This document shows positions 6,739 through 38,859 of a stretch of 64,000 bases of DNA, in pieces. Position numbers and translations under genes: made by a program. Source of the stretch: a phage; the NCBI GenBank assembly GCA_032691205.1, contig GCA_032691205.1_4541.1; one strand, written 5' to 3'. The notes under the pieces were generated by a model. The model was not told the DNA's origin, made no database searches, and worked only from the letters and a program-made list of their open reading frames with translations. How positions within the stretch are numbered: position 1 is the stretch's first letter; each line of letters begins with the position of its first letter.

Positions 6739-6847
6739 CCACTTTTTCAATCTTTTTTATTTTCTTTTTGCTTGCTATATATAAAGGAAAGGGTTATCAT
6801 CTTTCTACCGCGCCAACCAGGGCGCACAACAAAGAAAGGGCGACACC

Positions 6848-7114
6848 ATGACAAATACTACATTACATCTTATGCACTCATTGGGCTGGCAAGGCGGCAC
6901 GGTGCACCAGGTAGCAAGCGCAACGGGCTTAAAGGTTGAAACCGTTCTCAACCTATCAGATTATAAGGTCGAGGATAGTTATCAATTACAAAGTTACACG
7001 GGCGGTTTTACCTGGGCGCGTGAAGGTGGGAAAGAAAGCAATATACCACATTGGGGAAAAGGTGATATTCATTTTTGGCTAGGTGTCCTGACCTGGCAAG
7101 AAAACAAAAAATAA
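6848..7114 (+). CDS. hypothetical protein
   Basis: ORF 88 aa on the plus strand with RBS GAAAGGG; first rightward ORF after the leftward array. Confidence 0.4.
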   Translation: MTNTTLHLMHSLGWQGGTVHQVASATGLKVETVLNLSDYKVEDSYQLQSYTGGFTWAREGGKESNIPHWGKGDIHFWLGVLTWQENKK

Positions 7115-7116
7115 TC

Positions 7117-7145
7117 TTGACAAGCCCAGGGATAGGGCTTATACT
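7117..7145 (+). promoter_or_regulatory. sigma70-like promoter firing into the ORF-free region
   Basis: TTGACA (7117-7122), 17 nt, TATACT (7140-7145). Confidence 0.5.
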
Positions 7146-7376
7146 GTTTTACATACAGAAGAGGAAGCGCCACCCCACGGCGTAAAGGCGGGGCTAACAT
7201 ACCAGGGGCACTGGTTGGAAGGTTGATCGCCGGTAGGCTGGGCGCTATATATTTGTAAAGAAATGTAAAGATAAAATAATCGCTTGCTTTCCTGGCTGGA
7301 TCTGTTATTCTTATTACATGGCGAGGGGACACGGGAGCGCGAGACAAACACCGCCCCTGCGCGTCATTCTCTAAAT

Positions 7377-7395
7377 GAGAATGATTATCATTTAC
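7377..7395. promoter_or_regulatory. Fur-box-like palindrome
   Basis: GAGAATGATTATCATTTAC matches 15 of 19 positions of the Fur consensus GATAATGATAATCATTATC; related palindromes at 7365-7383, 7435-7453, 7463-7483. Confidence 0.3.
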
Positions 7396-7502
7396 CTTAT
7401 CAAATAAGAATAAATCTCATTTATAAACTTAAATGCGAATCATTATCATTTGCATTTCCATATGAGAACTCTTCTCATTCTCACCTGCATAAAAATTTTT
7501 GT

Positions 7503-7560
7503 AAACTTTAAATTTTGCTTTTGTACTTTCATTTTTGTAAAAGCAAAAAAACTTTAAATA
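7503..7560. repeat. direct repeat copy A (~58 bp)
   Basis: AAACTTTAAATTTTGCTTTTGTACTTTCATTTTTGTAAA...AAACTTTAAATA; second copy at 7640-7697. Confidence 0.6.
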
Positions 7561-7639
7561 CTGTGGGCGCGCAAAATTTTTAAAATTTTCCTTGACTTTT
7601 GAGTTTTGTTTTGTATCTAACATTTTAAGATAATTTTCC

Positions 7640-7697
7640 TAAACTTTAAATTTTGGTTTTCAACTTTCACTTTTGTAAATTCTTAAAAAGTTTAAAT
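7640..7697. repeat. direct repeat copy B (~58 bp)
   Basis: AAACTTTAAATTTTGGTTTTCAACTTTCACTTTTGTAAA...AAAGTTTAAATA; imperfect copy of 7503-7560. Confidence 0.6.
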
Positions 7698-7840
7698 AAT
7701 TTGAGGGATTTTTGAGATAATGGATAGTGGGAATTTGATATAACCTTTAATCTTATTAGTAGACCTTCAGGAACCCACCTAGATCGAATCCTAGTGATGC
7801 AAACTGAAAAAGATAAGTGTTTGTATAGGACAAAATAACA

Positions 7841-7874
7841 GGCTCTCTACGGTGCTGTAGGAGCCTTATTTCTG
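7841..7874. terminator. bidirectional rho-independent terminator
   Basis: Hairpin GGCTC(T)CTAC-GGTGCT-GTAGGAGCC flanked by T-runs on both strands; just downstream of the NADAR gene stop. Confidence 0.5.
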
Positions 7875-7921: not shown

Positions 7922-8464
7922 TCACAAATATCGTCTTTGCGGTATTTTGTCTGGGAAAAGTATTTCGATCAGTTTATTATGATATTTGCCTAAAAGATTC
8001 TGCCCTTTCCAGGTGGCAGGGTTTAGCACCCCTGGTTCATACATCCCCATTCCAATTCCGTAAACCTTATCGTAGGGGCTTGCTTCAACAAACGTTTTGT
8101 ATTGGTAAAGGTGTAAGTCTGCATACAAATCTGGATTCTGTACATATTTCAAGCATAAACCTCGCATAACAATACGCTCACGGTTCTCTTCCCATACATT
8201 GTTATCAAAATCCGACACTGCCCTACCCATACGTTTGTAATAAGCTTGGATCTTCTCATCTTTCCGTATCAAACTATGAGTCAGAATAGCCTGTGCAGTG
8301 TTGTGGTCATTAAAAAGCAAAGCTTTACGCCACATCATATATTGTTCGACACAATTAAATGTCTGATTGTAACCTGGTTCGGTTTCTGTAAAGGGTGCAA
8401 TATACCAATTACTAAAAACATCTTTATGTGAAAAGAAGAATACATAATCATCAGTTATTCGCAT
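7922..8464 (-). CDS. NADAR-domain protein (YbiA/DUF1768-like)
   Basis: 180 aa; motifs FFFSHKDVFSNWY, EQYMMWRKALLF, FDNNVWEENRERIVMRGLCLKYVQNPDL, GIGMGMYEPG read as NADAR family. Confidence 0.65.
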   Translation of the reverse strand: MRITDDYVFFFSHKDVFSNWYIAPFTETEPGYNQTFNCVEQYMMWRKALLFNDHNTAQAILTHSLIRKDEKIQAYYKRMGRAVSDFDNNVWEENRERIVMRGLCLKYVQNPDLYADLHLYQYKTFVEASPYDKVYGIGMGMYEPGVLNPATWKGQNLLGKYHNKLIEILFPDKIPQRRYL

Positions 8465-8675
8465 TTTTCATGCCTTCTAAAACTTTAGCTTGCCCGTCTT
8501 GAAAAGCTTTCATCAGAACTATCTTAAGATTGATTTCCAAACGTTCTTCATCCTCTCTATAACAATCCAACACTGCTTTAAGTTCATCATAGTGGTTCAG
8601 AATAGGTTTAAAGATTTCATGGTCTGCTAAACGTGCCATAGTTTCTCCTTTGTTAATCCATCCACCAGTAGCCAT
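8451..8675 (-). CDS. hypothetical protein
   Basis: ORF 74 aa, overlaps neighbours in operon fashion. Confidence 0.5.
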   Translation of the reverse strand: MATGGWINKGETMARLADHEIFKPILNHYDELKAVLDCYREDEERLEINLKIVLMKAFQDGQAKVLEGMKNANN

Positions 8676-9018
8676 AAACTGCGTCTGCGTCGATGAGTTT
8701 GTGTTTGTTGTTCCGCATGTAGTCTAAGATAAGTAGACGTTTATTGTATCTGGAGAGATTATGACCCTCTTTTCCGCCATAGTCAAAATATTTTGCAAGA
8801 TCTTTACACTCAAACAAAATCAGTTCGGGAGTTTCTTCACACTGGTCTGTCTGGTACACTTGACGAATGATCATGTATACATCGTCGTCTTCCGCTAAAT
8901 GCTCTACTGGTCCACATCCAGCAGGAACAAATTCATAGTCCCATCTGATCAGATGTTTCTCTACTGCTTCAAAGAAGTCCATTCTTTCGTTGCGCATAAT
9001 TTGAACGTCAACTAACAT
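8653..9018 (-). CDS. hypothetical protein
   Basis: ORF 121 aa. Confidence 0.55.
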   Translation of the reverse strand: MLVDVQIMRNERMDFFEAVEKHLIRWDYEFVPAGCGPVEHLAEDDDVYMIIRQVYQTDQCEETPELILFECKDLAKYFDYGGKEGHNLSRYNKRLLILDYMRNNKHKLIDADAVYGYWWMD

Positions 9019-10472
9019 GTTTCCTCCTCTCTCATTATTCCACCTGCTTGGTTGATAGCACTTAAGACGATAGCCAAATCCTCGCGCAGGAAGGTTTCAC
9101 TATGACCATCTTTCATGTGCAAGCGTTCTACACAGCCAATAGACGGTAGAATCTGATCAGTCTTAGACTTTAGCTTACTCTCTAACGCCCTGCAAGCTTG
9201 GTAGGACGGCAGATCGAACAATGCTATACGGCGCATAGAGTAATTGTTGTTTGCATTCTGCCCTTTGATCCTGATATCACTGTCCTTTGCAATCCCCAAC
9301 TTGTAAGCTCCCGTGTCTTCTCCGTACTCATCAAGAATAATATTGATGTAAAATTCTTGCATATTTCTGTTCTTACAGCCTGGACAACCTTTCCCATTGA
9401 GATAATCGGTAGGTGTGATCGTTTGCTCTCCATGCTCCCTACATAGATATTTAAACTTGCTGTTATTGCTTACCTTATCAATGAATCCTATAAATTGATC
9501 CCCTCGTTCCTGGCAAGCTTTGGTCATACGGTAGGCCCATTGTTCAGGAGTGTAATGATAATATTTAGAACAACGGCAAGGAAGGCCACCCCTTTTCAAA
9601 TGACTCATCTTCATCTCAAATTTATTATCGCATAAGCCTTCTTTACAATAATCATCCTCTGCACATATAGGACATTCTACAGTCCAGTAAACCTGACGAC
9701 CTAATCTATCTACTCTATCGCTACGATAATATTTACGCTCTACATTATCAGGACAAGCTTTTATAAAATCTTCAACATGTTGTTTATCCTCCATTGTATT
9801 CCTTTGTTTCGTCATTTCTCTTTGACAACTGTAGCATCCAGTCCCTTGTTTAGCACTGTTTACAGTGGTAGTGCACCATTGACCATGAACCTTACACTCA
9901 CAAATCAACTTAGTGCGGGAACCGTTCCACGGTTCCACATAGCCTCTAACAATCCAGGGTTTTTCTTTATAAGCTTCTTCTACTTCTTCTTTATGTTTCT
10001 CCCATGCAATCGATGTTCTTTCTCTGTTTGCTTCTCCCATACACTTCCTGCATCCACTCCCGTTTTTCGCAGAAGATATAGAAGTAGACCTCCACTCCCC
10101 ATGTAAAGCACAACAACAAACCAGTTTAGTATTCCATCCTTTCCATTCTCCGTGCCATCCTGTAACAGTCCAAAACTTACCTGCCTGATTGTAAGTGGTT
10201 TGCACTTCTTCTTTATATTGCTCCCAGGTTTTTGATTTGTTTATAGATACTGCTTTACTTATAATCTCCCTACCGCATTCTGGACAACCCCTCCCTAGTT
10301 TAGCGGTATTTATGCTTGTTGTTTTCCATTCTCCATGCAGAGCACAGATGCATCTAAGTTTAGTTTTATTGCCGTTCCACGGCTCAATATAATCTACAAC
10401 AGTCCAAGACTTACCTTGATAAGCTTGTTTTATATCTGTTTTATATTGTTCCCAAGTGACTATTTTTGGCAC
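9012..10472 (-). CDS. Cys-rich tandem-repeat protein with T5orf172-like (GIY-YIG-related) C-terminal domain
   Basis: 486 aa; four or five ~45-aa modules each with W..GxxTKL.C.C..HGEW...S/T..AK.G.GC..C; C-terminus EFYINIILDEYGE...YKLGIAKDSDIRIKGQ...MRRIALFDLP...HSETF. Confidence 0.6.
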   Translation of the reverse strand: MPKIVTWEQYKTDIKQAYQGKSWTVVDYIEPWNGNKTKLRCICALHGEWKTTSINTAKLGRGCPECGREIISKAVSINKSKTWEQYKEEVQTTYNQAGKFWTVTGWHGEWKGWNTKLVCCCALHGEWRSTSISSAKNGSGCRKCMGEANRERTSIAWEKHKEEVEEAYKEKPWIVRGYVEPWNGSRTKLICECKVHGQWCTTTVNSAKQGTGCYSCQREMTKQRNTMEDKQHVEDFIKACPDNVERKYYRSDRVDRLGRQVYWTVECPICAEDDYCKEGLCDNKFEMKMSHLKRGGLPCRCSKYYHYTPEQWAYRMTKACQERGDQFIGFIDKVSNNSKFKYLCREHGEQTITPTDYLNGKGCPGCKNRNMQEFYINIILDEYGEDTGAYKLGIAKDSDIRIKGQNANNNYSMRRIALFDLPSYQACRALESKLKSKTDQILPSIGCVERLHMKDGHSETFLREDLAIVLSAINQAGGIMREEETC

Positions 10473-10529: not shown

Positions 10530-10560
10530 CATAACAAATGCCCCTTGCGGGGCATCTTTA
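10530..10560 (-). terminator. rho-independent terminator after the ATPase gene
   Basis: Hairpin ATGCCCC-TTGC-GGGGCAT with flanking T-rich runs. Confidence 0.45.
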
Positions 10561-28369: not shown

Positions 28370-28975
28370 ATGCAACATAGTGTAGTAGTCAATATGCCGA
28401 ATAGTGGGGATAAATCTTTTGGTGTCCCTGCTAAAAAAGTGTGGAAAGCCCATTTTCATCTTACTTTATCTAACGTTAGTTCTGAAGAGTTGATGAAAGC
28501 AGCTAAGATTATTGGTGCCAAATGCACAACAATTGATTTACATCGGGATACAAAGTCTCAACGTGATCGTATGTTAACAAAGTATCAAAGCGATCTCGAC
28601 ACTACTTTAATGTTGCAGTGTGTAGAAAAACTTGAGAATGCAGGTTTCAATGTTGTTCGTTACAAACTGGAACGAATGTTTAAACATGTTGCCTGTGTTC
28701 TTTTCATGGATCTAAGTAAAGAAAATTATGGAGAAGTTCACATTAAGACTTCAGCAAGTGATCCCGAAGTAGAAACAAACTTCTTCCGTATTTCTTCTAA
28801 TGCTGAAGAAATTGATTACCGATTTTATAATGCTCGCTTATATTCCGCAGAAGATAAGTTGCGTTTCAATGAAGCGTATGATATGCTCTTGAACAGTGGG
28901 ATACAGATAAAAGGCTACCACATAGAACAAGTTGTGGTAGACAGTAACTTAAATCTTGATGCGTGGTGGGCCTAG
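28370..28975 (+). CDS. hypothetical protein
   Basis: ORF 201 aa, RBS GAGGAGATAAG; first gene of the Ter-like block. Confidence 0.65.
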   Translation: MQHSVVVNMPNSGDKSFGVPAKKVWKAHFHLTLSNVSSEELMKAAKIIGAKCTTIDLHRDTKSQRDRMLTKYQSDLDTTLMLQCVEKLENAGFNVVRYKLERMFKHVACVLFMDLSKENYGEVHIKTSASDPEVETNFFRISSNAEEIDYRFYNARLYSAEDKLRFNEAYDMLLNSGIQIKGYHIEQVVVDSNLNLDAWWA

Positions 28976-28976
28976 T

Positions 28977-29633
28977 ATGACAATAAAACATATTTCTTTT
29001 GATGTATGGAATACTCTTATTTCTGCCAATCAAAACTATGCAGATGCACGTACGCACACTATTGCTACATATGGTAGAATGTCTGAACGTGCGGCAAAAG
29101 AAGCATATAAAGATGCCAAAGAAATTATGGATAATGCTGCACTAAATGGGTGTGCAGAAGGTGTAGCATATGCATGGAATATGTTGGGAAGAAAGATAGG
29201 TTTAACCCCTGTAGAATCTGCACAAATGCGTTTTGAGTGTGAGCAATGGTTTCTTAAATTTCCTCCACATATCGCTTTAGATTTGCCAGTTTGTTTGCTA
29301 TACTTGTCTGGTAAATATGATCTTAGTATTAAAAGCAATACTAATTTTATATCTGGGGATATTTTGCGTCGTGCTTGTATGTTCGACAGTTGGAATTGTT
29401 TTGAATTTATGCATTTTTCAGACGAACATCTGTTATGTAAACCAGATCCTAGATTCTTTGTTAGGACCGCCACATATTCAAGCATTCCTTTGAAGGCTGA
29501 AGAGATTTTACATGTTGGGGACAGCGAAGAATTTGATGGTAAATGTGTTGACATAGGGATTAACTTCTGTCATATTAAGAACCCTAACGATTTACTAGAG
29601 AAACTTAAAAGAGGAGAAATTGTAAATGCGTAA
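28977..29633 (+). CDS. HAD-superfamily-like hydrolase (divergent)
   Basis: ISFDVWNTL (motif I with the second Asp replaced) and LHVGDSEEFDGK (motif IV-like). Confidence 0.4.
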   Translation: MTIKHISFDVWNTLISANQNYADARTHTIATYGRMSERAAKEAYKDAKEIMDNAALNGCAEGVAYAWNMLGRKIGLTPVESAQMRFECEQWFLKFPPHIALDLPVCLLYLSGKYDLSIKSNTNFISGDILRRACMFDSWNCFEFMHFSDEHLLCKPDPRFFVRTATYSSIPLKAEEILHVGDSEEFDGKCVDIGINFCHIKNPNDLLEKLKRGEIVNA

Positions 29634-30453
29634 TCAAACTCAAATTTTTGCAAATAAATTTGATGACCTGGAAACTGCTACTTTTGATATCAAAGACTAT
29701 TCAAAATTGAAATTTGGTTGTAACCAAGCTGCGCGTCGTATGGGTAAAGAATTGGCACTTCAGTTTTTTGCTCAAGTGGCAATGAAACATATTGGGGAAC
29801 AATTTGTTATCATCCCTTCTCCTTATAACCATGTGCACAATGCTGCAACAATGATGACAGATCATTTTATTAATTACTTTAATATGTTGCAAGCACAATA
29901 TGATCAAGGTCGTTCAGCAGAACTGGATATTATTCATCGTAAAGTTAGCTATATCAACGATTATGGTTTCTTGGATAAAGCTAGTCGTAAGAAACTTATT
30001 GATGGGGATACATTCTACTGCAACAAAGAATTCTGGGGTGATAAGAAGCTTGTGTTCATTGATGATGTAAATATCACCGGAACTCATGAAGACAAACTGA
30101 TTGAGATTCTTGATGAAAATCAAGTTAAAAATGATGTTTACTTCTTGTATTTTGCAAAATATGAAGGTAATCAAGCAGATACTGAAGCTAAACTGAATTT
30201 TAACTACATCAATACACCAGAAGCGTTTGTTAAAATGATTAATGAAGAACGTGATGCACAGTGTCTTGTTCGTCCTATTAAGTATCTTATGGGCCAAAAT
30301 CACGAAGACTTCAAAATCATTCTTAGCCAATTGCCACACTACTATGTAGAGCAACTTTTCTTCGGATGTTTGGGAGAAGGTTACAACCGAATTTCAAAGT
30401 ATGCTGAAAACTTTGAATTCTTGGATCGTTACACAAAACAACACATTCTGTAA
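29626..30453 (+). CDS. phosphoribosyltransferase-like protein
   Basis: PRPP-binding signature KKLVFIDDVNITGTHEDKL. Confidence 0.55.
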   Translation: MRNQTQIFANKFDDLETATFDIKDYSKLKFGCNQAARRMGKELALQFFAQVAMKHIGEQFVIIPSPYNHVHNAATMMTDHFINYFNMLQAQYDQGRSAELDIIHRKVSYINDYGFLDKASRKKLIDGDTFYCNKEFWGDKKLVFIDDVNITGTHEDKLIEILDENQVKNDVYFLYFAKYEGNQADTEAKLNFNYINTPEAFVKMINEERDAQCLVRPIKYLMGQNHEDFKIILSQLPHYYVEQLFFGCLGEGYNRISKYAENFEFLDRYTKQHIL

Positions 30454-30466
30454 TAAGGAGCTAAAA

Positions 30467-30940
30467 ATGCTTAAAATGAAAACAGGTAATCTTATTGATG
30501 CCGCTAAAGCAGGTGAAGTAACTGTTATTGCTCATTGTTGCAATTGTATGTGTAATATGGGAGCAGGAATTGCTCCGCAAATTAAACGAGCATTCCCTTA
30601 TGCATATGCGGCAGATTTAGACACAATGGCTGGTGATCAAAGTAAGTTAGGTTCTTTTAGTTTAGGGGTGCCAGACGAACAATCAGACCCTTTGGTATAT
30701 AATCTATACGGGCAATACCGTTACGGATACAATGCTAAAGGTCGTCAGTTGGACTATGATGCACTTTACGATGCACTAATAGCTATGGCTAATGATTTGC
30801 TTCTCCGTGACCAAAAATGTAAGATAGGTTTACCTATGATTGGAGCGGGACATGCCGGAGGTAATTGGGCTATCATCCAAGTGATGATTGAAGAAACTTT
30901 AGTAAAAACAGGTCACGATGTGACTATTTATAAACTTTAA
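30467..30940 (+). CDS. macro-domain protein (ADP-ribose binding/hydrolase)
   Basis: Start MLKMKTGN with RBS TAAGGAG; EVTVIAHCCNCMCNMGAGIAPQIKRAFP and IGLPMIGAGHAGG. Confidence 0.65.
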   Translation: MLKMKTGNLIDAAKAGEVTVIAHCCNCMCNMGAGIAPQIKRAFPYAYAADLDTMAGDQSKLGSFSLGVPDEQSDPLVYNLYGQYRYGYNAKGRQLDYDALYDALIAMANDLLLRDQKCKIGLPMIGAGHAGGNWAIIQVMIEETLVKTGHDVTIYKL

Positions 30941-30952
30941 GAGGAGATTAGT

Positions 30953-31174
30953 ATGGGTGTTTTTGCAGGTATTGTTGCAGTGGTAAGCTTTTTTGTTATT
31001 GCTTTTATGCTTAGTTTGATTCCAGCTTGGTTACTGTTGCTGGCTTACAACTATGTTGCTGAAGTTATGGGTCATGCAGATATCACTGTCCCAGTAACCT
31101 TCTGGACCGTGGTTTGTGTTTCGTTTATTTTGGCGGTATTACGAGGAATCTTTTCCTCTCATTCAACAAAATAA
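30953..31174 (+). CDS. hypothetical small membrane protein
   Basis: 73 aa, two predicted TM helices. Confidence 0.55.
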   Translation: MGVFAGIVAVVSFFVIAFMLSLIPAWLLLLAYNYVAEVMGHADITVPVTFWTVVCVSFILAVLRGIFSSHSTK

Positions 31175-31177
31175 GTG

Positions 31178-31236
31178 TTGACATAGTTCTTAAAAAGAGT
31201 AAGATATATCACATGAAGCGGGGAATAGTTCCCCGC
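31178..31236 (+). promoter_or_regulatory. early-type promoter + 5'-UTR hairpin unit (only plus-strand copy), upstream of terC
   Basis: TTGACA-16nt-TAAGAT then hairpin GCGGGGAA-TAG-TTCCCCGC (31218-31236), RBS AGAGGAGAA. Confidence 0.6.
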
Positions 31237-31253
31237 AAAGAGAGGAGAAAAGA

Positions 31254-32228
31254 ATGCAACTCGGTTTCCCAATTATTGATGTAGTTGTTTTAGTTGGTAT
31301 TTTAGCATTGTCTATTGGTATCGATTTCTTTGGTCATAAAGAGAATAAAGAAATTGGAATTAAATCTGCTTTGCTTTGGTCTGTTTTTTGGATTGCTTTA
31401 GCTTTAGGGTATTACGCATTCATTTGGGTAGAACATGGTAAAGAGTTTGCCGCGCTTTTCCTAAGTGGCTATGTGTTGGAAAAGAGTCTTTCTGTAGATA
31501 ACCTAATGGTGTTCATGGCAATTTTTGCAAGCTTTGGAATTAAGAGCACACATCTCCAACATAAGATTCTACTTTGGGGGATTGCAGGAGCCATTGTCTT
31601 CCGAGGTATTTTTGTTGCAGCAGGGACCGCTTTGTTTAACCTTCATTGGTCGGTCCAAGTGTTGTTCGGTTTGATTGTAGCTTGGTCTGCCGTGGCTATC
31701 ATCAAAGGTGGTGACGAAGAAGAGGATATTGATTACTCTAAACATTGGGCTGTTCGTTTAGTAGGTAAAGTTCTGCCTGTGCACAATGCACTGGATGGTG
31801 AAAAGTTCATCACCATTAAGAATGGTATTAAATATGCAACTCCTGCTCTTCTTTGTGTGTTTGTTATTGAGCTTACAGATATTGTCTTCTCTTTTGATTC
31901 AGTTCCGGCTGTGATCGGTGTGACACAAGAACCTCTGCTAGTTTATTCTGCAATGCTGATGGCTGTTCTTGGTTTACGTGCACTTTTCTTTGTGTTAAGT
32001 GTAGCTGTGAAATATCTGGTTCACTTAGAGAAAGCTGTTGCTGTGGTTCTGGTGTTTGTTGGTGCTAAACTTATGTATCACCCGTTCGGTGAAACACTTC
32101 ATGCCAAGTGGTCATTCCTCCCGCATGATATTTCCCCTAACGTAAGTCTGATGATTGTTCTAGGCACATTATCTCTTGGTGTTATTGCAAGCTTTATCTT
32201 CCCTGAAAAAGAAGAAGCTACTGTTTAA
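31254..32228 (+). CDS. terC: TerC-family integral membrane protein
   Basis: 324 aa multi-pass; conserved LEKSLSVDNLMVF and ELTDIVFSFDSVPAVIGV. Confidence 0.65.
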   Translation: MQLGFPIIDVVVLVGILALSIGIDFFGHKENKEIGIKSALLWSVFWIALALGYYAFIWVEHGKEFAALFLSGYVLEKSLSVDNLMVFMAIFASFGIKSTHLQHKILLWGIAGAIVFRGIFVAAGTALFNLHWSVQVLFGLIVAWSAVAIIKGGDEEEDIDYSKHWAVRLVGKVLPVHNALDGEKFITIKNGIKYATPALLCVFVIELTDIVFSFDSVPAVIGVTQEPLLVYSAMLMAVLGLRALFFVLSVAVKYLVHLEKAVAVVLVFVGAKLMYHPFGETLHAKWSFLPHDISPNVSLMIVLGTLSLGVIASFIFPEKEEATV

Positions 32229-32234
32229 TAAATG

Positions 32235-32258
32235 AGCCTCCTTCGGGAGGCTATTTTA
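32235..32258 (+). terminator. rho-independent terminator
   Basis: AGCCTCC-TTCG-GGAGGCT then ATTTTAT. Confidence 0.6.
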
Positions 32259-32270
32259 TAGGAGAGACTT

Positions 32271-32621
32271 ATGAGTAATTTTGATGAAATTCAAGAACTT
32301 GTTTGGGATTTATCTGGTGATGTGGATTACGTTTTAGATTATCTTTCAAAAGTTTACCCTGGGGTAAGCGTTATGATCGTGACCAAAGATCCAATTAATT
32401 TGCCTCCTAATGTGGTAGCTTGTTGTGGGAGTGGTTCAGGGGAAGTGGAGCCTGTATCCCGTTGGGAATTAACTAAAGCTGTTTCAAAACGAAACGGTGA
32501 AGTTTTGAATATTGATATCGAGCAAATATGGACTTCTCCAGCAGCTAAATGGAATGATCCGAATGGTTGGGACTTGTTCTTCTGGGATAATGAAACTGAT
32601 GATGAGGTATTTTTAAAATGA
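32271..32621 (+). CDS. hypothetical protein
   Basis: ORF 116 aa. Confidence 0.55.
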   Translation: MSNFDEIQELVWDLSGDVDYVLDYLSKVYPGVSVMIVTKDPINLPPNVVACCGSGSGEVEPVSRWELTKAVSKRNGEVLNIDIEQIWTSPAAKWNDPNGWDLFFWDNETDDEVFLK

Positions 32622-32804
32622 AATACTTGTTGGTTGTGTTTGAAAATATTTGTTTTGCAATAGGGTTGTTTGTTGTAATTTTTGTATTGACAAGCGTAAT
32701 CAACGGCAGTAAAGTGAGTTTATACCGAGATGGAGAGCAACTTTATTGCTTCTCTGGAGATTTCAAACACAGATGTATTAATAGCCAAAACGAGGAAAGC
32801 AAAT

Positions 32805-33242
32805 ATGAAAAAACTAGCCCTGATTTTAATTGGTTGTATCTTTTTAACAGCTTGCGAGGATGAAACAAATCCTGCACAATACCAACAACCTCCTCAACAA
32901 TACGCTCAACAAGGATCTGACGGAGATACAACTATTATCAACAATGGTGGCGGTTCTAGTAGTAGCGGTGTTGGTGAGTTTGCTACAGGTATGTTGTTAG
33001 GGCATATGATGAGTGGCGGTAGTAATCGTAGCAGTGGGGATTATAACGATAACAGAACGATTATTAATAAGCATTATAATACACCTAAACCGAAAACTAA
33101 TTTTTATAGTAAGCCTAAACAAGAGATAAAAACTTATGAAAAGCCGAGACAAACTTTTAAAACAAATAGTAGCTATACAACTCGTAAATCTTACAATAGC
33201 CCTTTAAGTAAAAAGAGTTCATCTCGTAGCAAGCGACGTTAA
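32805..33242 (+). CDS. lipoprotein with Gly-rich segment
   Basis: MKKLALILIGCIFLTAC lipobox; GGGSSSSGVGEFATGMLLGHMMSGG; RBS GAGGAAAG. Confidence 0.55.
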   Translation: MKKLALILIGCIFLTACEDETNPAQYQQPPQQYAQQGSDGDTTIINNGGGSSSSGVGEFATGMLLGHMMSGGSNRSSGDYNDNRTIINKHYNTPKPKTNFYSKPKQEIKTYEKPRQTFKTNSSYTTRKSYNSPLSKKSSSRSKRR

Positions 33243-33256
33243 TAAGGAGAAAAACA

Positions 33257-33850
33257 ATGACAATTTCTATTCGTACTTCCATCGTAGGTGTTAAAAGGTT
33301 GCCTAATGCTTTGCAAATCACACGCGCTTTGAGGGATACATTCTCTGCTGTGGACGAGCATAAGATGCTTGATAATCTTTCAAATTGGCCCTATTTCCAT
33401 TATTTTAAAAATGAAGATGACGAGTTTATAGACGCTGTTTCTTATGGTTATGATTTCGGTAAGGAGGTTTCTGCTGAAGAATTTGTAGCTATGGTGTTCC
33501 CAAACGGTTTGCCTACTCGCAGTAAACGTAAAAAAGGACCAAAAAACAAGAAACGTGCTACTAATAAAGCTACCATTTTCTTTACTGATGGCACACAATA
33601 TACGATTAAAGATTTTGAAGAGGTATCTTATACAGCAGGTGGGAATCTTTCTTTCTACACCATCAAAAAACAAAACTCTACGTTCAGCCATGTTTCTAAC
33701 ATGATTGAAATGTTAGTAGAAGATATTGAAAGCGTAGCTGTGTTAGGTATGCATAAAAGCTTTTTAATTACAAATATTTCAGATTTCAGTGCACGTTTAT
33801 CTGGTCCTGATTTTGAAACCACGACCACGCATTTCACTTTTAAGGTGTAA
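33257..33850 (+). CDS. hypothetical protein
   Basis: ORF 197 aa, RBS AAGGAGAA. Confidence 0.6.
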   Translation: MTISIRTSIVGVKRLPNALQITRALRDTFSAVDEHKMLDNLSNWPYFHYFKNEDDEFIDAVSYGYDFGKEVSAEEFVAMVFPNGLPTRSKRKKGPKNKKRATNKATIFFTDGTQYTIKDFEEVSYTAGGNLSFYTIKKQNSTFSHVSNMIEMLVEDIESVAVLGMHKSFLITNISDFSARLSGPDFETTTTHFTFKV

Positions 33851-33853
33851 GTT

Positions 33854-34444
33854 ATGTATACCGAGAGAGACTTGCAACTCTTGTGGTGGGAAGTGATGCA
33901 GGAAATAAAAGAAGATTTTCCTGTTTACTACAACATGTTACGTGAAGCAGGATATAAAGCTTGTGTTAGAAACAAAGTGAATAACTCTTTCGGTTGGTGC
34001 AACTACCGAGATAAAATTGTTGTTGTAAATTGGCACTTGCATAAGAACTCTACAAGAGATATGATCGTGGATACAATGAAGCACGAAATTGCTCATGCTA
34101 TTGATGGTTGTATGGGTAAGTTTAGTAGACACGGTGCTCATTGGCAAAAACTGGCAGCAGAGTTAGGGGCTAATCCTAAAGCCACTTCCAAAGAGCCGTT
34201 GAACCACGAATATAAATATGTTCTTGTTCTGGTAGATAGGTTTGCGACAAGATGTGTTAGAGGTTATAATCGTAAACCTAATCGCATGTACCCAGGTAAG
34301 CAACCTAATATGTGGTTGAAATCAGATAAAGAAGGGACCGAAGGAAAATTATGGTTGTATAAATGGGACGATTGGGTTAAAGTAGCTAAAGAGTACGGTG
34401 TTTCACCATATATAAGAGATGCAGAAGAGGAGAATGAAGAATGA
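33854..34444 (+). CDS. SprT-like zinc metallopeptidase
   Basis: HExxH motif MKHEIAHAIDGCMGKFSRHGAHWQ. Confidence 0.5.
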   Translation: MYTERDLQLLWWEVMQEIKEDFPVYYNMLREAGYKACVRNKVNNSFGWCNYRDKIVVVNWHLHKNSTRDMIVDTMKHEIAHAIDGCMGKFSRHGAHWQKLAAELGANPKATSKEPLNHEYKYVLVLVDRFATRCVRGYNRKPNRMYPGKQPNMWLKSDKEGTEGKLWLYKWDDWVKVAKEYGVSPYIRDAEEENEE

Positions 34445-35553
34445 CAAGTCCATTTTTAAAAGCAGCTACTGGCGGTCAGAAGAAGCCTGAAATGAGCGTA
34501 TTTGCTGCAACAACAGATGCAAGTAAATCTGTATTCGCTCCAAGCGTGTTAGATGCCAGTCCTGTTTATGCACCAGCGGCACCGCAAGAAGTTCCAGTTT
34601 TGCCTTCTATGACCCGACAAGAGATCGAAGAGATTGGGGCAGAGGCAGGAACAACCTTGCGTTCCTTGAATGCCGAGGTATTAAAACATCAACGTAGTAA
34701 TCAAGGCGATCAGATGAGTGAACGACTCACAGCTTTGATTAAACAGGCAAAACAACTTGATCCAAACTCTATTAAACAAAGCAAGGGTATTACTAAACTC
34801 ATTAAAAAAGTTATGGGTATGAAAGAAGATCTGTTTGGGGAGTTTGATAATGTTAATAACCGTATTGAAGAGTTGGTAAAAAACCTTCAAATGGATATTC
34901 GCAAAGAAGAAGATTCCTTGGTATATCTTGAAAAGCTACATCAAGCTATTGGACAATATGCTGCAAGTTTGAACCGAGATATGCAGCTTCTAACAGCAAC
35001 CTATGAAAAAGAAGAACAAGCTTTGGCTGCTCTTCCAGAAGATGCAGTAGAACAGCGACAAGTGATCCGAGATACTTTGGATCTTCTGGAGATTCGTATT
35101 GCAGATTTAAAAGCATTGCGCCTACTGTGTGTCCAAATGGGACCGCGTGTACAAGGTATGCAAAAAGTTTCTGCAAGCTTAATGCGATCTGCGCGTAACA
35201 TAGTAAATAATGTTATTCCTGCTTACTCTGCTAACTTCTCAATGTATATCGAGAGCTTACGTCAAATGAAAGCAGCAGAGACGCAGAATAACGTTCTTGA
35301 TGAATTTAACCTGGCAATTAAACTGGGTAGCGATCTTGCCACACAGAATCAGATCGAAGCAGCAGCCCTGGCTAACCGCCAAGTGCTCGATATTGAAACT
35401 CTGCGTCACGATCAGGAAAACTTGGTTAAAATGTTGGAAGAAACTAACCGCATCAATACGGAAGCCCGTGCTGCTCGTGTTGATTATATTAATGAAGTTC
35501 AATCTCTGGAAGACGGGATGGTAGCTGCTGTGAAACGAGGGCTTGGTAAATGA
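34441..35553 (+). CDS. TelA-like (toxic anion resistance family) protein
   Basis: 370 aa, almost entirely helical/coiled-coil; size and composition fit the TelA/KlaA family. Confidence 0.4.
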   Translation: MTSPFLKAATGGQKKPEMSVFAATTDASKSVFAPSVLDASPVYAPAAPQEVPVLPSMTRQEIEEIGAEAGTTLRSLNAEVLKHQRSNQGDQMSERLTALIKQAKQLDPNSIKQSKGITKLIKKVMGMKEDLFGEFDNVNNRIEELVKNLQMDIRKEEDSLVYLEKLHQAIGQYAASLNRDMQLLTATYEKEEQALAALPEDAVEQRQVIRDTLDLLEIRIADLKALRLLCVQMGPRVQGMQKVSASLMRSARNIVNNVIPAYSANFSMYIESLRQMKAAETQNNVLDEFNLAIKLGSDLATQNQIEAAALANRQVLDIETLRHDQENLVKMLEETNRINTEARAARVDYINEVQSLEDGMVAAVKRGLGK

Positions 35554-35747
35554 GAATCCGTATCTATATAATTGATGAAGACATTGGTGTCCGTTATGAT
35601 GACGAAAAACGATTCGCGCCGATGGGAGGCATATATCCCCCAAGTGTTCTAGCAGTTTGTCGTGATTGTTATATTTATGAAGGTTGTCGTAACTTCCGTA
35701 AATTCGAACTCCTTGCAGATATTGACTTCAATGAGGAGGAGGAGTAA
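35550..35747 (+). CDS. hypothetical protein
   Basis: ORF 65 aa, acidic C-terminus. Confidence 0.45.
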   Translation: MRIRIYIIDEDIGVRYDDEKRFAPMGGIYPPSVLAVCRDCYIYEGCRNFRKFELLADIDFNEEEE

Positions 35748-35920
35748 TGAAAATATTACGAGTGAATATTGAAACTGCTTGGTGTGGATGCAATGAGGTT
35801 GTGGATATCGAAATTGAAGATGATATGTCTCAAGAGGATATAGAAGATCTTGCGCACGAAACCTTTCAGGACTATTGTAATTACGGGTTTCATATTTTAG
35901 AGGAGGAAGAAGATGTTTAA
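35747..35920 (+). CDS. hypothetical protein (57 aa)
   Basis: ATG at 35747 with RBS GAGGAGGAGGAG. Confidence 0.4.
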   Translation: MKILRVNIETAWCGCNEVVDIEIEDDMSQEDIEDLAHETFQDYCNYGFHILEEEEDV

Positions 35921-36116
35921 CTACGATAACGACCCTAATATTATCCAGTTAACCCGACAAGAACTGATCACAATCATTGAAGATGCTTTTATTGATGGTT
36001 GGAATACACAAGATAATGACTGGGGTGGACCCGAAGCTTTTCTGGAACATCATAAAGCTTATGGAGAATTTTGTGAAACCACTGTAGCTCTTGATAATCT
36101 GAAGGAGGGTTTGTAA
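35913..36116 (+). CDS. hypothetical protein
   Basis: ORF 67 aa, RBS GAGGAGGAAGAAG. Confidence 0.5.
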   Translation: MFNYDNDPNIIQLTRQELITIIEDAFIDGWNTQDNDWGGPEAFLEHHKAYGEFCETTVALDNLKEGL

Positions 36117-36679
36117 TGGGTTGTTTTAGTTTTTTGTGCAAAGAATCGGGCAAAGCTGCCCTTTCTACTTCTTTCGACGGATCACCTTGCTACCTCTTTC
36201 TTTTGAAAGACGGTGTTGTTATTGAAGAGATGTATGGCAACTATGATAGTTATGGTTGTGTTTTCTCTGGAAAAGAGGATGAAAATGGCGTTCGTGAACG
36301 GTTCGAATGGGCTATGGATTGGAGTAAGGTTTGTGATTTGATGCATTCCTCAAATCCAAGGGACGGTATCGCTATGGTGCTGGAAGAGTACTTTACAGGT
36401 GAAATCCCTACAGAACAATCTGACGGAGATCCTAACCAAGGTTGGGGTGATGGTGAAGAAGATCCAGATTGTTTTTTCAGCACAGAAAAGAATAAGTTTA
36501 AACGTGTTGACAACCCTTATCACAAAGTGCATAATACTCTCATTGAAACAGAAGATGACAAGATGGAAATTGAAGAAGATGATCCTCTTGTAACACTTCC
36601 TATAAGTGAGTTACAAAAGATCACTAAGGAAGCTTACGATTTGGGCTTCAAAATTGGTAGAGGAGGTATGCGTGTTTAG
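36116..36679 (+). CDS. hypothetical acidic protein
   Basis: ORF 187 aa, RBS GAAGGAGG. Confidence 0.6.
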   Translation: MGCFSFLCKESGKAALSTSFDGSPCYLFLLKDGVVIEEMYGNYDSYGCVFSGKEDENGVRERFEWAMDWSKVCDLMHSSNPRDGIAMVLEEYFTGEIPTEQSDGDPNQGWGDGEEDPDCFFSTEKNKFKRVDNPYHKVHNTLIETEDDKMEIEEDDPLVTLPISELQKITKEAYDLGFKIGRGGMRV

Positions 36680-36950
36680 ATTCAATATTCAAGAAGAAAA
36701 AAGTCAGGATTTACCTATTGCTTTCGAAGATCTTGACGTAGGGGCCACATTCATGTATTATGATGCCTATGAAGACGCAGGGTTGGATACCTACCGCAAC
36801 TTGGTGTTCATTAAAAATTCCACAAACAGTGCGATCTGTATTAATGGATCACTAGCACAACGAGGCTATACTCATTGCATCCCACCAGATACAAATATGG
36901 TGGAAGTAGATTTAGAAGTTACCAATATTACACTTAAGAAGGAGAAATAA
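36673..36950 (+). CDS. hypothetical protein (cassette copy A, small partner)
   Basis: GTG start with RBS GGAGG; ...FEDLDVGATFMYYDAYEDAGLD...LEVTNITLKKEK is paralogous to 37972..38241. Confidence 0.55.
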
Positions 36951-36951
36951 T

Positions 36952-37746
36952 ATGTCCGAGAAAATCAGCCTGAAAAAACGTCAAGAAAACCTTGCTTTCT
37001 CTCTGAAAAAGAATAAGAACCTGAATGAAGGTAAGATTGTTCTTCGTGTAGCATGTGCTCTAGATATTTCTGGTAGTATGCATGGTCTATATTCTAGTGG
37101 AGTAGTGAGTGATTTTGTAGGTAAACTGCTTCCTTTTGGTATGCTGTTCGACGATAATCAACAAATTGATATGTGGGCCTTCAATACGAGTTCCCAAGAG
37201 CTTACTCCAGCAACAGCAGACGTTTACGATGACTATGTTGGTAAATGTATGCGTAATGTTCGTATTGGAGGTGGAACAAATTACGCCCCTGTAATGGCAG
37301 ATATCTACGATGAGTATTTTGGCACTGTTACCAAATATATTACCACTAAACAAGTGGTACAAGAGGAGGCTCCAAAGAAAGGCTTCTTTAATCGTCTGCT
37401 TGGTAAAACTGAAACAGTATCTGTAGAGCGTGAAAAGGTTGTAGCTGTGTCTGAACCAGGTGCTGACGTTACCCCTGGTGTTGTATTCTTCCAGACGGAT
37501 GGTGAGAATGGTGATCCTAGTGCTGTTCGTCGTCTTATTGAAGAGAATAAGAATAAACCTATTTATTGGTTCATGGTTGGCGTTGGTAATGAGAAGTTTG
37601 GCTTCCTGAAAGAACTGGCAAATGCTTATGATAATGTTGGTTTTATTGGCATTAAAGATTTAGACTTGACAGATTCAGAGCTTTATGACAAACTCTTATC
37701 TGAAGAGTTCGGAGAGTGGGTTGTTAAAGTAGGTGCTAAAAAATGA
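36952..37746 (+). CDS. vWA-domain protein (TerY-like)
   Basis: N-terminus MSEKISLKK; MIDAS motif ALDISGSM. Confidence 0.6.
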   Translation: MSEKISLKKRQENLAFSLKKNKNLNEGKIVLRVACALDISGSMHGLYSSGVVSDFVGKLLPFGMLFDDNQQIDMWAFNTSSQELTPATADVYDDYVGKCMRNVRIGGGTNYAPVMADIYDEYFGTVTKYITTKQVVQEEAPKKGFFNRLLGKTETVSVEREKVVAVSEPGADVTPGVVFFQTDGENGDPSAVRRLIEENKNKPIYWFMVGVGNEKFGFLKELANAYDNVGFIGIKDLDLTDSELYDKLLSEEFGEWVVKVGAKK

Positions 37747-37991
37747 TCGACGAGCTTGCCTCTCAAGTCATAGAAAATTATTGGCGTGAGAGAGAAGCTT
37801 TCATTATGCGCAGTCTCAAAGAGTATTTCATTGGGACTGTGCGAATGGAAGATATTGTAAGTAGAGTAGAGATTCATGTATGGCCTGATTATGAAGAATG
37901 GGTTGACAAAGAAAATGAAAATGCTATAATTCTTCGTATATACAAACCGGAGATAACATTAGGAGGAAGAAGTGTTAAACTTCGAAATTGA
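37743..37991 (+). CDS. hypothetical protein
   Basis: ORF 82 aa. Confidence 0.5.
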   Translation: MIDELASQVIENYWREREAFIMRSLKEYFIGTVRMEDIVSRVEIHVWPDYEEWVDKENENAIILRIYKPEITLGGRSVKLRN

Positions 37992-38241
37992 TGAGCAAAA
38001 AGTAAATAAACGATGCCTTACCATTAAAGATTTGGATGTAGGAGATACTTTCGTCTATGAAAATGCATTTGACGAAAATGGTTTAGACCTTAGTGAAATC
38101 ATTGTTTATTTAAAAGTAGATGATGGGGAAAATGATTATTCTGCTGTAGAACTAAACCATCATGCACAATTAGTATCAATCCAAAACACATCTAAGCTTT
38201 TGGAAGTAGAATTGACTGTAACTGGTATTACACTTAAATAA
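37972..38241 (+). CDS. hypothetical protein (cassette copy B, small partner)
   Basis: GTG start with RBS AGGAGGAAGAA; ...IKDLDVGDTFVYENAFDENGLD...LTVTGITLK is paralogous to 36673..36950. Confidence 0.55.
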   Translation: MLNFEIDEQKVNKRCLTIKDLDVGDTFVYENAFDENGLDLSEIIVYLKVDDGENDYSAVELNHHAQLVSIQNTSKLLEVELTVTGITLK

Positions 38242-38256
38242 TAGAGGAGACAAAAG

Positions 38257-38859
38257 ATGACTGATAAAATTTCCCTGAAAAAAGGCTCTAGCGAAAAAAT
38301 TTCCCTGAAGAAAGTTGCTCCGGCTCTGAAAGAACTGCGCCTGGAATTCTCTTGGAAATCTGATTCTAAACTGGATCTGGATGTAAGTGCACTGGTTTGT
38401 CGTCATAATGCCGCTGGCAATCCTGAAATGCTGTCCGCACGTCATCTGGTTTGCTATGCTAACAAGTTTGATCCTGAACGTTCTACCTTCGCTGGTGACG
38501 ATGTTCGTGATGGGACTGGCAGCATGGAGCAGATTGATATTACTCTGGCTAAAATCTCTCCTGATGCACAAGAGATTGCCTTTGTTCTGACCATTGATGA
38601 TGATACAGGTCTGAAACGTTTTGGTCATGCTTCTGAAGGTATGCTTAAAATCTTCGACTCCGAGCGTAATGTGGAAATTCTGGATTTTGACTTCCTGGCT
38701 CCTGAAGTAGCTGGCAACACAATCTGCCACGTGGCTTCCCTGGTTCGTGAAGATGGAGAATGGAAGCTGAAAGCATATGGTGTAGGTAAAGCTGGTCTGG
38801 ATATTTGCGATGTGGTGATGGCCTTCGGTGGTAAAAAAGAATGGTATGAATGTCCATAA
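38257..38859 (+). CDS. terD: TerD-family protein
   Basis: MTDKISLKKGSSEKISLKK N-terminus, DLDVSALV, GDDVRDGTG, IAFVLTIDDD, REDGEWKLKAYGVG fit TerD along its length. Confidence 0.75.
   Translation: MTDKISLKKGSSEKISLKKVAPALKELRLEFSWKSDSKLDLDVSALVCRHNAAGNPEMLSARHLVCYANKFDPERSTFAGDDVRDGTGSMEQIDITLAKISPDAQEIAFVLTIDDDTGLKRFGHASEGMLKIFDSERNVEILDFDFLAPEVAGNTICHVASLVREDGEWKLKAYGVGKAGLDICDVVMAFGGKKEWYECP

Follow-up and report, generated by a model that had tools for sequence, protein, structure and literature searches.

A leftward unit in a phAPEC8-like E. coli phage ends with a gene for a NADAR protein which probably is an AdfN-type counter-defence enzyme, hydrolysing the ADP-ribose-guanine bond made by DarT1 in phage DNA and thereby restoring replication. 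Judged by sequence and gene order, the protein is the Phapecoctavirus ortholog of AdfN^Bas60, a phage NADAR that has been assayed against DarTG1. We infer both the guanine-ADPr hydrolase activity and the anti-DarTG1 function from this ortholog and from the biochemistry of the family.

The window, that is the whole stretch of 64,000 nucleotides analysed here, comes from a phAPEC8-like myovirus (Phapecoctavirus, Stephanstirmvirinae), and a 4-kb region shares about 96% identity with ESCO13, phAPEC8_ev052 and others. Phage EF1-1 has exactly this NADAR protein (100% identity), and the phAPEC8 version is 98.3% identical.

In the ORF list of the window a minus-strand ORF of 180 amino acids fills positions 7922-8464 exactly, from ATG to TGA. 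The features of the locus are collected in Table 1. The gene has a GC content of 38%, compared with 39% for the window, and it lies among small early-type genes that form a leftward block. A terminator hairpin with a T-run is found 56 nt past the stop codon on the minus strand. The folding energy of this region is -32.5 kcal/mol, while shuffled sequences give -18.4 +/- 3.2 (z = -4.39) and 0 of 200 shuffles match its stability. Because the stem is bulged, a simple pattern scan overlooked this terminator, and it was recovered by RNA folding. Past the terminator there is an AT-rich repeat block and then a convergent ORF. Given the gene's own ribosome-binding site, the terminator and what lies beyond it, the NADAR gene is the last of its leftward unit, so the place at the end of a leftward operon that a sequence-only reading of this DNA had assigned to it holds. 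A tRNA scan and an Rfam scan of the window at the gathering threshold gave no matches.

Table 1. Features of the NADAR locus, and the companion macrodomain gene, in the window.
Feature	Position	Strand	Basis
NADAR (AdfN-like) coding sequence, stop codon included	7922..8464	-	ORF, Pfam PF08719, bas60_0111 identity, AF2, Foldseek
Ribosome-binding site GAAGG of the NADAR gene, ATG 8 nt further on	8473..8477	-	upstream sequence
Intrinsic terminator of the NADAR gene: 10-bp stem with one bulge (7840-7866), then GUUAUUUUG	7832..7866	-	RNA fold
Mosaic patch in the NADAR gene, codons ~28-90	8195..8383	-	drop in nucleotide identity versus phAPEC8_ev052, dS
Co-oriented upstream gene, 486 aa, five CapR homology domains	9012..10472	-	Pfam PF21817, 98 bits, 5 stretches; 35% to bas60_0110, same position
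Co-oriented upstream AAA-type ATPase, 379 aa	10561..11700	-	Pfam AAA; 64% to bas60_0109 ('FtsH-like protease')
Macrodomain gene, 157 aa, T4 Tk.4/AdfM homolog, candidate for thymidine-ADPr (DarT2) reversal	30467..30940	+	Pfam Macro, PDB matches, Tk.4 identity

Two ORFs of 74 and 121 amino acids upstream of the NADAR gene have no match in Pfam. A functional module of the NADAR, CapR-repeat and AAA genes was considered and rejected, as their linkage is confined to Stephanstirmvirinae. In phage 4MG and in Staphylococcus phage JD007 the neighbours of NADAR are unrelated to those in the window, and NADAR thus behaves as a stand-alone gene.

The sequence-only reading had noticed NADAR/YbiA motifs in the translation, and the Pfam search bears this out: the NADAR family (PF08719) is matched with E = 7.8e-36 and 124.2 bits (gathering score 35.1) over protein residues 11-161 and model positions 3-154 of 163. 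NADAR is the sole domain that Pfam finds in the protein, with no match to GTP cyclohydrolase II. In addition, the protein matches phrog_1017 (E = 7.5e-52) and NCBIfam TIGR02464 (113.1 bits, cutoff 73.7). The latter is a domain-level model, and 8BAU-like orphan NADARs are expected to match it too.

The structural comparisons agree with this. By phmmer, the best sequence match in the PDB is the NADAR of Phytophthora nicotianae, 8BAU (E = 3.8e-15). A profile of the family finds 8BAU at 4.3e-35 and YbiA at 1.1e-15 in the PDB, and does not reach the DarT1-associated NADAR of G. lovleyi. The AlphaFold2 model (pLDDT 95.7, pTM 0.89) has strands at residues 7-10 and 124-127 in addition to helices, i.e. 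the YbiA-like fold of an alpha-helical core flanked by two small beta sheets. When this model is compared with the PDB using Foldseek, 8BAU (TM 0.78) and 2B3W, which is YbiA (TM 0.68), are found, and nothing else has an E-value under 1. The product of 7922-8464 is thereby confirmed as a genuine single-domain NADAR.

The active site was mapped through the phmmer alignment to 8BAU, in which the residue numbers of the chain run 2 off from those of Schuller; with this shift taken into account 13/13 letters agree. Table 2 lists the ligand-binding and catalytic residues of 8BAU named by Schuller 2023, of which ten of the thirteen are identical in the window NADAR while the other three are conservatively replaced. 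In an alignment of 44 sequences of the family E40, K47, K77, G80, W91, E127 and D132 are invariant, and these include a complete catalytic trio of Glu, Lys and a third acidic residue (E40, K47 and E127). K115 of the E. coli C7 protein, the equivalent of K77, is needed in vivo for antitoxin function (Schuller 2023, PMC11543638).

Table 2. Correspondence of ligand-binding and catalytic residues, starting from those named in 8BAU.
8BAU	E. coli C7	Role	Window NADAR	Window versus 8BAU
E43	E88		E40	identical
K50	K95		K47	identical
K75	K115	antitoxin function depends on K115	K77	identical
G78		ligand binding	G80	identical
R79		ligand binding	R81	identical
V81		ligand binding	V83	identical
Y84		adenine stacking	F86	conservative
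D86		ligand binding	N88	conservative
W89		ligand binding	W91	identical
R93		ligand binding	R95	identical
E125	D171	third acidic residue (YbiA-type Glu)	E127	identical
D130		ligand binding	D132	identical
W133		ligand binding	Y135	conservative

The third acidic residue differs between types of NADAR. E127 of the window protein, in a V-E-A-S motif, is in the YbiA-type Glu state, whereas the equivalent position is Asp in DarT1-associated NADARs (PMC11543638) and His in T4-like NADARs. Further, an insertion specific to the subfamily is present in the window NADAR at about residues 63-76.

Phage NADARs able to overcome DarTG1 have been named AdfN (Johannesman, Carlson & LeRoux; preprint PMC11257639; Nat Commun 2025, PMC11825919). 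Besides T4 gp30.3, the proteins AdfN^Bas32 and AdfN^Bas60 were assayed there, and both neutralise DarT1 in the absence of phage (PMC11257639, PMC11825919). Each of them restores RB69, T5 and Bas25 on DarTG1 hosts, while neither rescues T5 on DarTG2 (PMC11825919). In the literature AdfN^Bas60 is reported by ectopic expression only and we found no native-phage deletion phenotype; a search for assays of any Phapecoctavirus NADAR likewise found none.

The NADAR of Bas60 (phage PaulScherrer) is bas60_0111, and Bas60-62 all carry this protein. Their identification as phAPEC8-like phages was ruled out: they are phi92-like, now Justusliebigvirus, the sister genus of Phapecoctavirus. Therefore the window NADAR, which is 59% identical to bas60_0111 over 172 amino acids, is an ortholog of the assayed protein and not the same protein. 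The order of the genes is the same in the two phages, with 64% identity for the AAA ATPase, 35% for the CapR-repeat protein, 59% for the NADAR and 64% for a downstream protein of 188 amino acids. Since the flanking genes are 64%, 35% and 64% identical, the divergence of the NADAR is typical for a comparison of Phapecoctavirus with Justusliebigvirus. The conserved order and the typical divergence together argue for a vertically inherited ortholog and not for a separate acquisition.

DarT1 ADP-ribosylates guanine, a modification that is reversed by NADARs, and the native antitoxin of DarT1 is itself a NADAR; DarT2 acts on thymidine, and its mark is taken off by the DarG macrodomain (Schuller 2023, PMC11543638). 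Guanine-ADPr was hydrolysed by each of four NADAR subtypes and thymidine-ADPr by none of them; only some shield cells from DarT1 (Cihlova 2024, PMC11125620). YbiA and T4 gp30.3 hydrolyse a model substrate, yet they do not rescue DarT1 toxicity in uninfected E. coli (PMC11125620). Hydrolysis of guanine-ADPr in vitro does not guarantee protection in cells.

The statement of the sequence-only reading that NADARs strip ADP-ribose from guanine in DNA is in line with these studies (Schuller 2023, PMC11543638), and the anti-defence role which it proposed is the best-supported one, given that the assayed ortholog AdfN^Bas60 is anti-DarTG1. The part that does not stand is the target. It had named DarT2-type systems, whereas guanine is modified by DarT1, the NADARs assayed fail on thymidine-ADPr, and AdfN^Bas60 gives no rescue on DarTG2. 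Action of the window NADAR against DarT2, i.e. on thymidine-ADPr, is not expected. As guanine is the target of DarT1 and thymidine that of DarT2, the NADAR is a candidate anti-DarTG1 gene, and the macrodomain gene found elsewhere in the window a candidate anti-DarT2 gene.

In this case the gene would be transcribed early and encode a stand-alone ADP-ribosyl N-glycohydrolase belonging to the NADAR superfamily. On infection of a DarTG1-type host, DarT1 would block replication by modifying guanines of single-stranded phage DNA with ADP-ribose at their exocyclic amino group. The NADAR would bind the ADP-ribose, with the pyrophosphate held by K47, R81, W91 and R95 and the adenine stacking on F86, and E40 and E127 would be used for hydrolysis of the ribose-guanine N-glycosidic bond. 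With unmodified DNA regained, replication could proceed.

Some observations count against the anti-DarTG1 reading. The window NADAR differs from AdfN^Bas60 at 41% of positions, it scores above the cutoff of a model named 'riboflavin intermediates N-glycosidase' (TIGR02464), and it is without the extension at the N terminus proposed to make up a DNA groove in DarT1-associated NADARs.

It is conceivable, if unlikely, that the main substrate is something other than DarT1-modified DNA, such as cytidine-ADPr (made by pierisin-like ARTs), ADP-ribosylated RNA, or small ADPr-derived immune signals or toxins. Certain NADARs, YbiA-type ones included, are reported to remove cytidine-ADPr as well (PMC12945103), and the window NADAR has the YbiA-type Glu at position 127, not Asp or His. 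Phage NADAR and Macro domains have been argued to target mostly diffusible ADPr derivatives (Iyer et al. 2022, PMC9503650), and detoxification of further, undiscovered DNA ADP-ribosylating defences by such enzymes is raised as a possibility by Johannesman et al. However, AdfN^Bas60, the closest assayed relative, acts directly on DarT1/DarTG1 in cells, and in the literature examined no NADAR is shown to degrade an immune signalling molecule. A broader or different ADPr substrate overlaps with the anti-DarTG1 explanation and is not an exclusive alternative to it. A YbiA-like housekeeping N-glycosidase that destroys reactive intermediates of the riboflavin pathway, or an otherwise metabolic enzyme, is very improbable. 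Such a role is hinted at by the TIGR02464 (ribofla_fusion) match of 113 bits (cutoff 73.7) and by names in the databases, where several homologs are called 'ribA/ribD-fused uncharacterized protein' and relatives in GenBank are labelled GTP cyclohydrolase II or YbiA-like N-glycosidase. The GTP cyclohydrolase II domain is absent from the protein, which carries the NADAR domain alone, so that this label has been transferred from fusion proteins. Identity to E. coli YbiA is 29% over 96 amino acids only, the family profile favours 8BAU over YbiA by 20 orders of magnitude, and AdfN^Bas60 has been placed with bacterial NADARs that are neither YbiA nor DarG (Johannesman et al., PMC11257639). Moreover, no riboflavin (rib) genes are annotated in the surrounding operon, and riboflavin damage control is no obvious need of a lytic phage. 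With no such domain and weak similarity to YbiA, a GTP cyclohydrolase II or riboflavin function was rejected.

We give hardly any credence to the idea that the protein is a non-enzymatic, ADP-ribose-binding inhibitor of an NAD+-consuming defence, modelled on the phage NADAR-like inhibitor of Retron-Eco1. That inhibitor is reportedly named U56 and is said to bind ADPr, and all ADPr-binding residues are present in the window NADAR. Against this, none of the catalytic residues varies across the family, and the most divergent part of the gene, described below, evolves under purifying selection (dN/dS of about 0.12); both fit a working enzyme. The Bas60 ortholog, further, works by neutralisation of DarT1.

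The macro-domain gene that the sequence-only reading had claimed at 30467-30940 is real. Pfam Macro is matched only marginally (23.0 bits, threshold 22). In a phmmer search of the PDB, however, the ORF matches SCO6735 (5E3B, 1.1e-12), the macrodomain of Taq DarG (5M31, 9e-7) and TARG1 (3.5e-6), with further matches to BT1257 and Mtb DarG. The NCBIfam and PADLOC models of DarG match it over the macro half of the models only. Identity to T4 Tk.4 is 37% (E = 2e-21). T4 Tk.4 has been renamed AdfM, since its deletion sensitises T4 to DarTG2 (2025 preprint, 10.1101/2025.11.20.689424), and the AdfM proteins of Chimallivirus are anti-DarTG2 macrodomains (PMC13309987).

In the macro ORF the catalytic Asn is kept, with N26 aligned to N22 of Taq DarG (N23 in PhiKZ AdfM). 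The catalytic Lys is not: a Gln (in Y-G-Q-Y) is aligned to K80 of Taq DarG (K78 in PhiKZ AdfM). T4 Tk.4/AdfM has a Gln at this position too (N-L-Y-T-Q-F). As the Gln-bearing T4 AdfM is still required against DarTG2, the missing Lys is compatible with an anti-DarTG2 function, and we withdrew its absence as a ground to dismiss the ORF as a DNA de-ADP-ribosylase.

A distance of 22 kb separates the macro gene from the NADAR gene; the two lie on opposite strands and belong to different modules. The macro gene is flanked by genes for a HAD hydrolase and a ComF-like PRTase on one side and by TerC, TelA and TerD-type genes on the other, and given this neighbourhood it may have a metabolic role. Plausibly, as the sequence-only reading had supposed, the phage carries two separate ADP-ribose erasers, with the NADAR acting on guanine and the macrodomain on thymidine. 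The pairing has a precedent in T4, which has AdfN as well as AdfM/Tk.4 (10.1101/2025.11.20.689424).

The NADAR gene is not uniformly conserved among close relatives. Compared with phAPEC8_ev052 the nucleotide identity is 75% in the bin 8201-8400 and 97-100% in its flanks. The dS value is 1.41 in the divergent patch and 0.135 elsewhere in the gene, while dN/dS in the patch is about 0.12. Positive selection behind the patch was ruled out, as dN/dS is low and dS saturated. The high dS together with this dN/dS points to exchange by recombination of an older allele among Phapecoctavirus genomes, under purifying selection. The alternative type of NADAR allele is seen in database clusters at 88%, 85% and 83% identity.

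All catalytic residues are kept in the other allele of the patch. The amino acid changes are concentrated in two stretches, residues 52-72 and 85-90, close to the side where adenine is bound. The patch (residues 28-90), which lies around the active-site helices, could change the specificity of the NADAR, a point that also counts against the anti-DarTG1 reading. A bolder idea, which we consider a long shot, is that Phapecoctaviruses carry a two-enzyme 'DNA de-ADP-ribosylation kit', with the NADAR for guanine, perhaps cytidine, and the Tk.4-type macrodomain for thymidine, and that the patch separates the alleles into two functional classes that differ in substrate or toxin-family range, maintained by the varied ADP-ribosyltransferases of the hosts.

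The phAPEC8-like genus consists of common, broad-host-range phages of E. coli, Klebsiella and APEC that are found in therapy-oriented collections. If the anti-DarTG1 reading is true, the counter-defence of AdfN^Bas60 extends to this whole genus, and phAPEC8-like phages are predicted to be insensitive to DarTG1. The presence of a NADAR and a Tk.4-like macrodomain would then suggest that separate erasers for guanine and thymidine ADP-ribosylation of DNA occur in large myoviruses beyond T4. In addition, the widespread misannotation of the NADAR gene as 'GTP cyclohydrolase II' is corrected. The function of the ortholog (published 2024-2025) and the pairing of NADAR with a macrodomain in T4 were already known, and no new mechanism is opened; the window NADAR would be a further, largely expected, member of the Bas60-type AdfN.

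Among the known NADARs, E. coli YbiA (2B3W) is the product of a housekeeping gene in a LexA-controlled operon, and shares with the window NADAR the core fold (TM 0.68) and a Glu-type active site. YbiA hydrolyses guanine-ADPr in vitro and gives no protection against DarT1 in cells (Cihlova 2024, PMC11125620).

With DarG1 of E. coli C7 and G. lovleyi, the window NADAR shares the superfamily, the chemistry and the expected substrate, guanine-ADPr in single-stranded DNA, and the equivalents of E88, K95 and K115 are kept as E40, K47 and K77. In contrast to DarG1, it has no adjacent DarT gene, no N-terminal extension, and a Glu in place of the catalytic Asp171. Upstream are the ORFs of 74 and 121 amino acids, the CapR-repeat protein and the AAA ATPase, and downstream are the terminator and an intergenic region, so a DarT1 neighbour is absent. 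The first strand of the core begins with residue 7, and residue 4 is where the alignment to 8BAU sets in; as the protein thus begins directly at the core fold, it is without the basic N-terminal extension of DarG1. The DarG models of PADLOC do not match the window NADAR. On account of the missing DarT neighbour, the missing extension and Glu127 instead of Asp, identity with DarG1 was rejected.

AdfN^T4 (gp30.3) is, like the window protein, an orphan phage NADAR, and gp30.3 counters DarTG1. The T4-like NADARs differ in having His at the position of Glu127, and they are fully effective only in T-even infection (Johannesman et al.). A BLASTP comparison of the window NADAR with gp30.3 gives no significant alignment (E = 4.6), and the two are independent acquisitions.

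The closest solved structure is 8BAU, with 28% identity and a TM score of 0.78. It is an orphan NADAR, not associated with DarT, whose third catalytic residue is of the Glu type, and it has been shown to hydrolyse guanine-ADPr (Schuller 2023, PMC11543638). It differs in being eukaryotic, and the insertion at residues ~63-76 is the phage protein's own.

Compared with AdfN^Bas60, the window NADAR comes from another genus, Phapecoctavirus, 41% of its residues are unlike, its loop between the first strands is shorter, and the locus has the two additional ORFs (74 and 121 amino acids) between the CapR gene and the NADAR. What the two proteins share is the length class (180 amino acids in the window versus 183), a genomic place that closes the unit and follows the AAA ATPase and CapR-repeat genes, the subfamily-specific insertion EK.QAYYKR, the catalytic residues, and the Tyr which replaces W133 of 8BAU.

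The NADAR gene of the window (7922-8464) is a mosaic at the nucleotide level. When it is compared with phAPEC8_ev052, a Phapecoctavirus relative, the identity is 75% in the bin 8201-8400, while it is 97-100% in the flanks. Further, dS is 1.41 in this patch against 0.135 outside it, with a dN/dS of about 0.12. Together these values suggest that recombination replaced the stretch encoding residues ~28-90 with an allele that had diverged long ago. Among Phapecoctavirus genomes the NADAR gene occurs in two allele classes.

In many phage records in GenBank its relatives are called "GTP cyclohydrolase II", and one phage record labels it "DNA methyltransferase". The protein contains a NADAR domain only, so the cyclohydrolase label is a transfer from RibA-fused homologs. 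The coordinates of the features discussed here are collected in the table.

Features within and around the NADAR unit and in the macro gene cluster
Feature	Position	Strand	Remarks
Mosaic patch	8195-8383	-	inside NADAR gene, residues ~28-90; nucleotide comparison with phAPEC8_ev052
Small ORF pair, 74 and 121 aa	8451-8675 and 8653-9018	-	between CapR-repeat gene and NADAR
CapR-repeat protein, 486 aa	9012-10472	-	five tandem CapR homology domains, PF21817, 98 bits
Perfect GC-rich palindrome ATGCCCC-TTGC-GGGGCAT	10538-10555		between AAA ATPase stop and CapR-repeat gene start
AT-rich intergenic block	7372-7703		downstream of NADAR terminator; iteron-like and longer repeats
88-aa ORF	6848-7114	+	convergent with NADAR unit
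Terminator-like hairpin	7122-7140		after 88-aa ORF
HAD hydrolase homolog	28956-29633	+	macro gene cluster
ComF-like PRTase homolog	29626-30453	+	macro gene cluster; PF15610, 144 bits
TerC homolog	31254-32228	+	macro gene cluster
TelA homolog	34441-35553	+	macro gene cluster
TerD/E homolog	38257-38859	+	macro gene cluster

Upstream in the same leftward unit, the homology domains of the CapR-repeat protein are Cys-rich repeats, and its RefSeq relatives carry the label "endonuclease". The protein is only 35% identical to its counterpart in Justusliebigvirus, the sister genus, while its neighbours reach ~60-64%, so it is fast-evolving. The palindrome before the gene has a weak T-tail on the minus strand and may thus be an internal attenuator or processing site. 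For the two small ORFs we found no Pfam match, and no tblastn match in the loci of Bas60 (a Justusliebigvirus) or phage inny; in both loci the CapR-repeat gene directly adjoins NADAR.

The macro gene (30467-30940) belongs to a cluster at 28956-38859 on the plus strand, which we take to be a Ter-type "nucleoside-like metabolite" gene set. Given these neighbours, the macrodomain could act on a ribosyl-phosphate metabolite instead of DNA adducts.

For the AT-rich block, an origin is one possible role and a promoter array another. The block holds three partly palindromic iteron-like repeats at 29-nt spacing (TAAATGAGAATGATTATCATTT). It also has a pair of longer repeats, ~72 nt each and 138 nt from one another, with TTTACA-type promoter-like boxes. 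Relatives have no CDS annotated at the equivalent place, and in inny it is annotated as "repeat_region". Still further downstream, the region 6800-7200 is locally more divergent than its surroundings (82-88% identity to phAPEC8_ev052, where no CDS is annotated in this segment). In size and orientation the 88-aa ORF is the same as bas60_0113 of Bas60.
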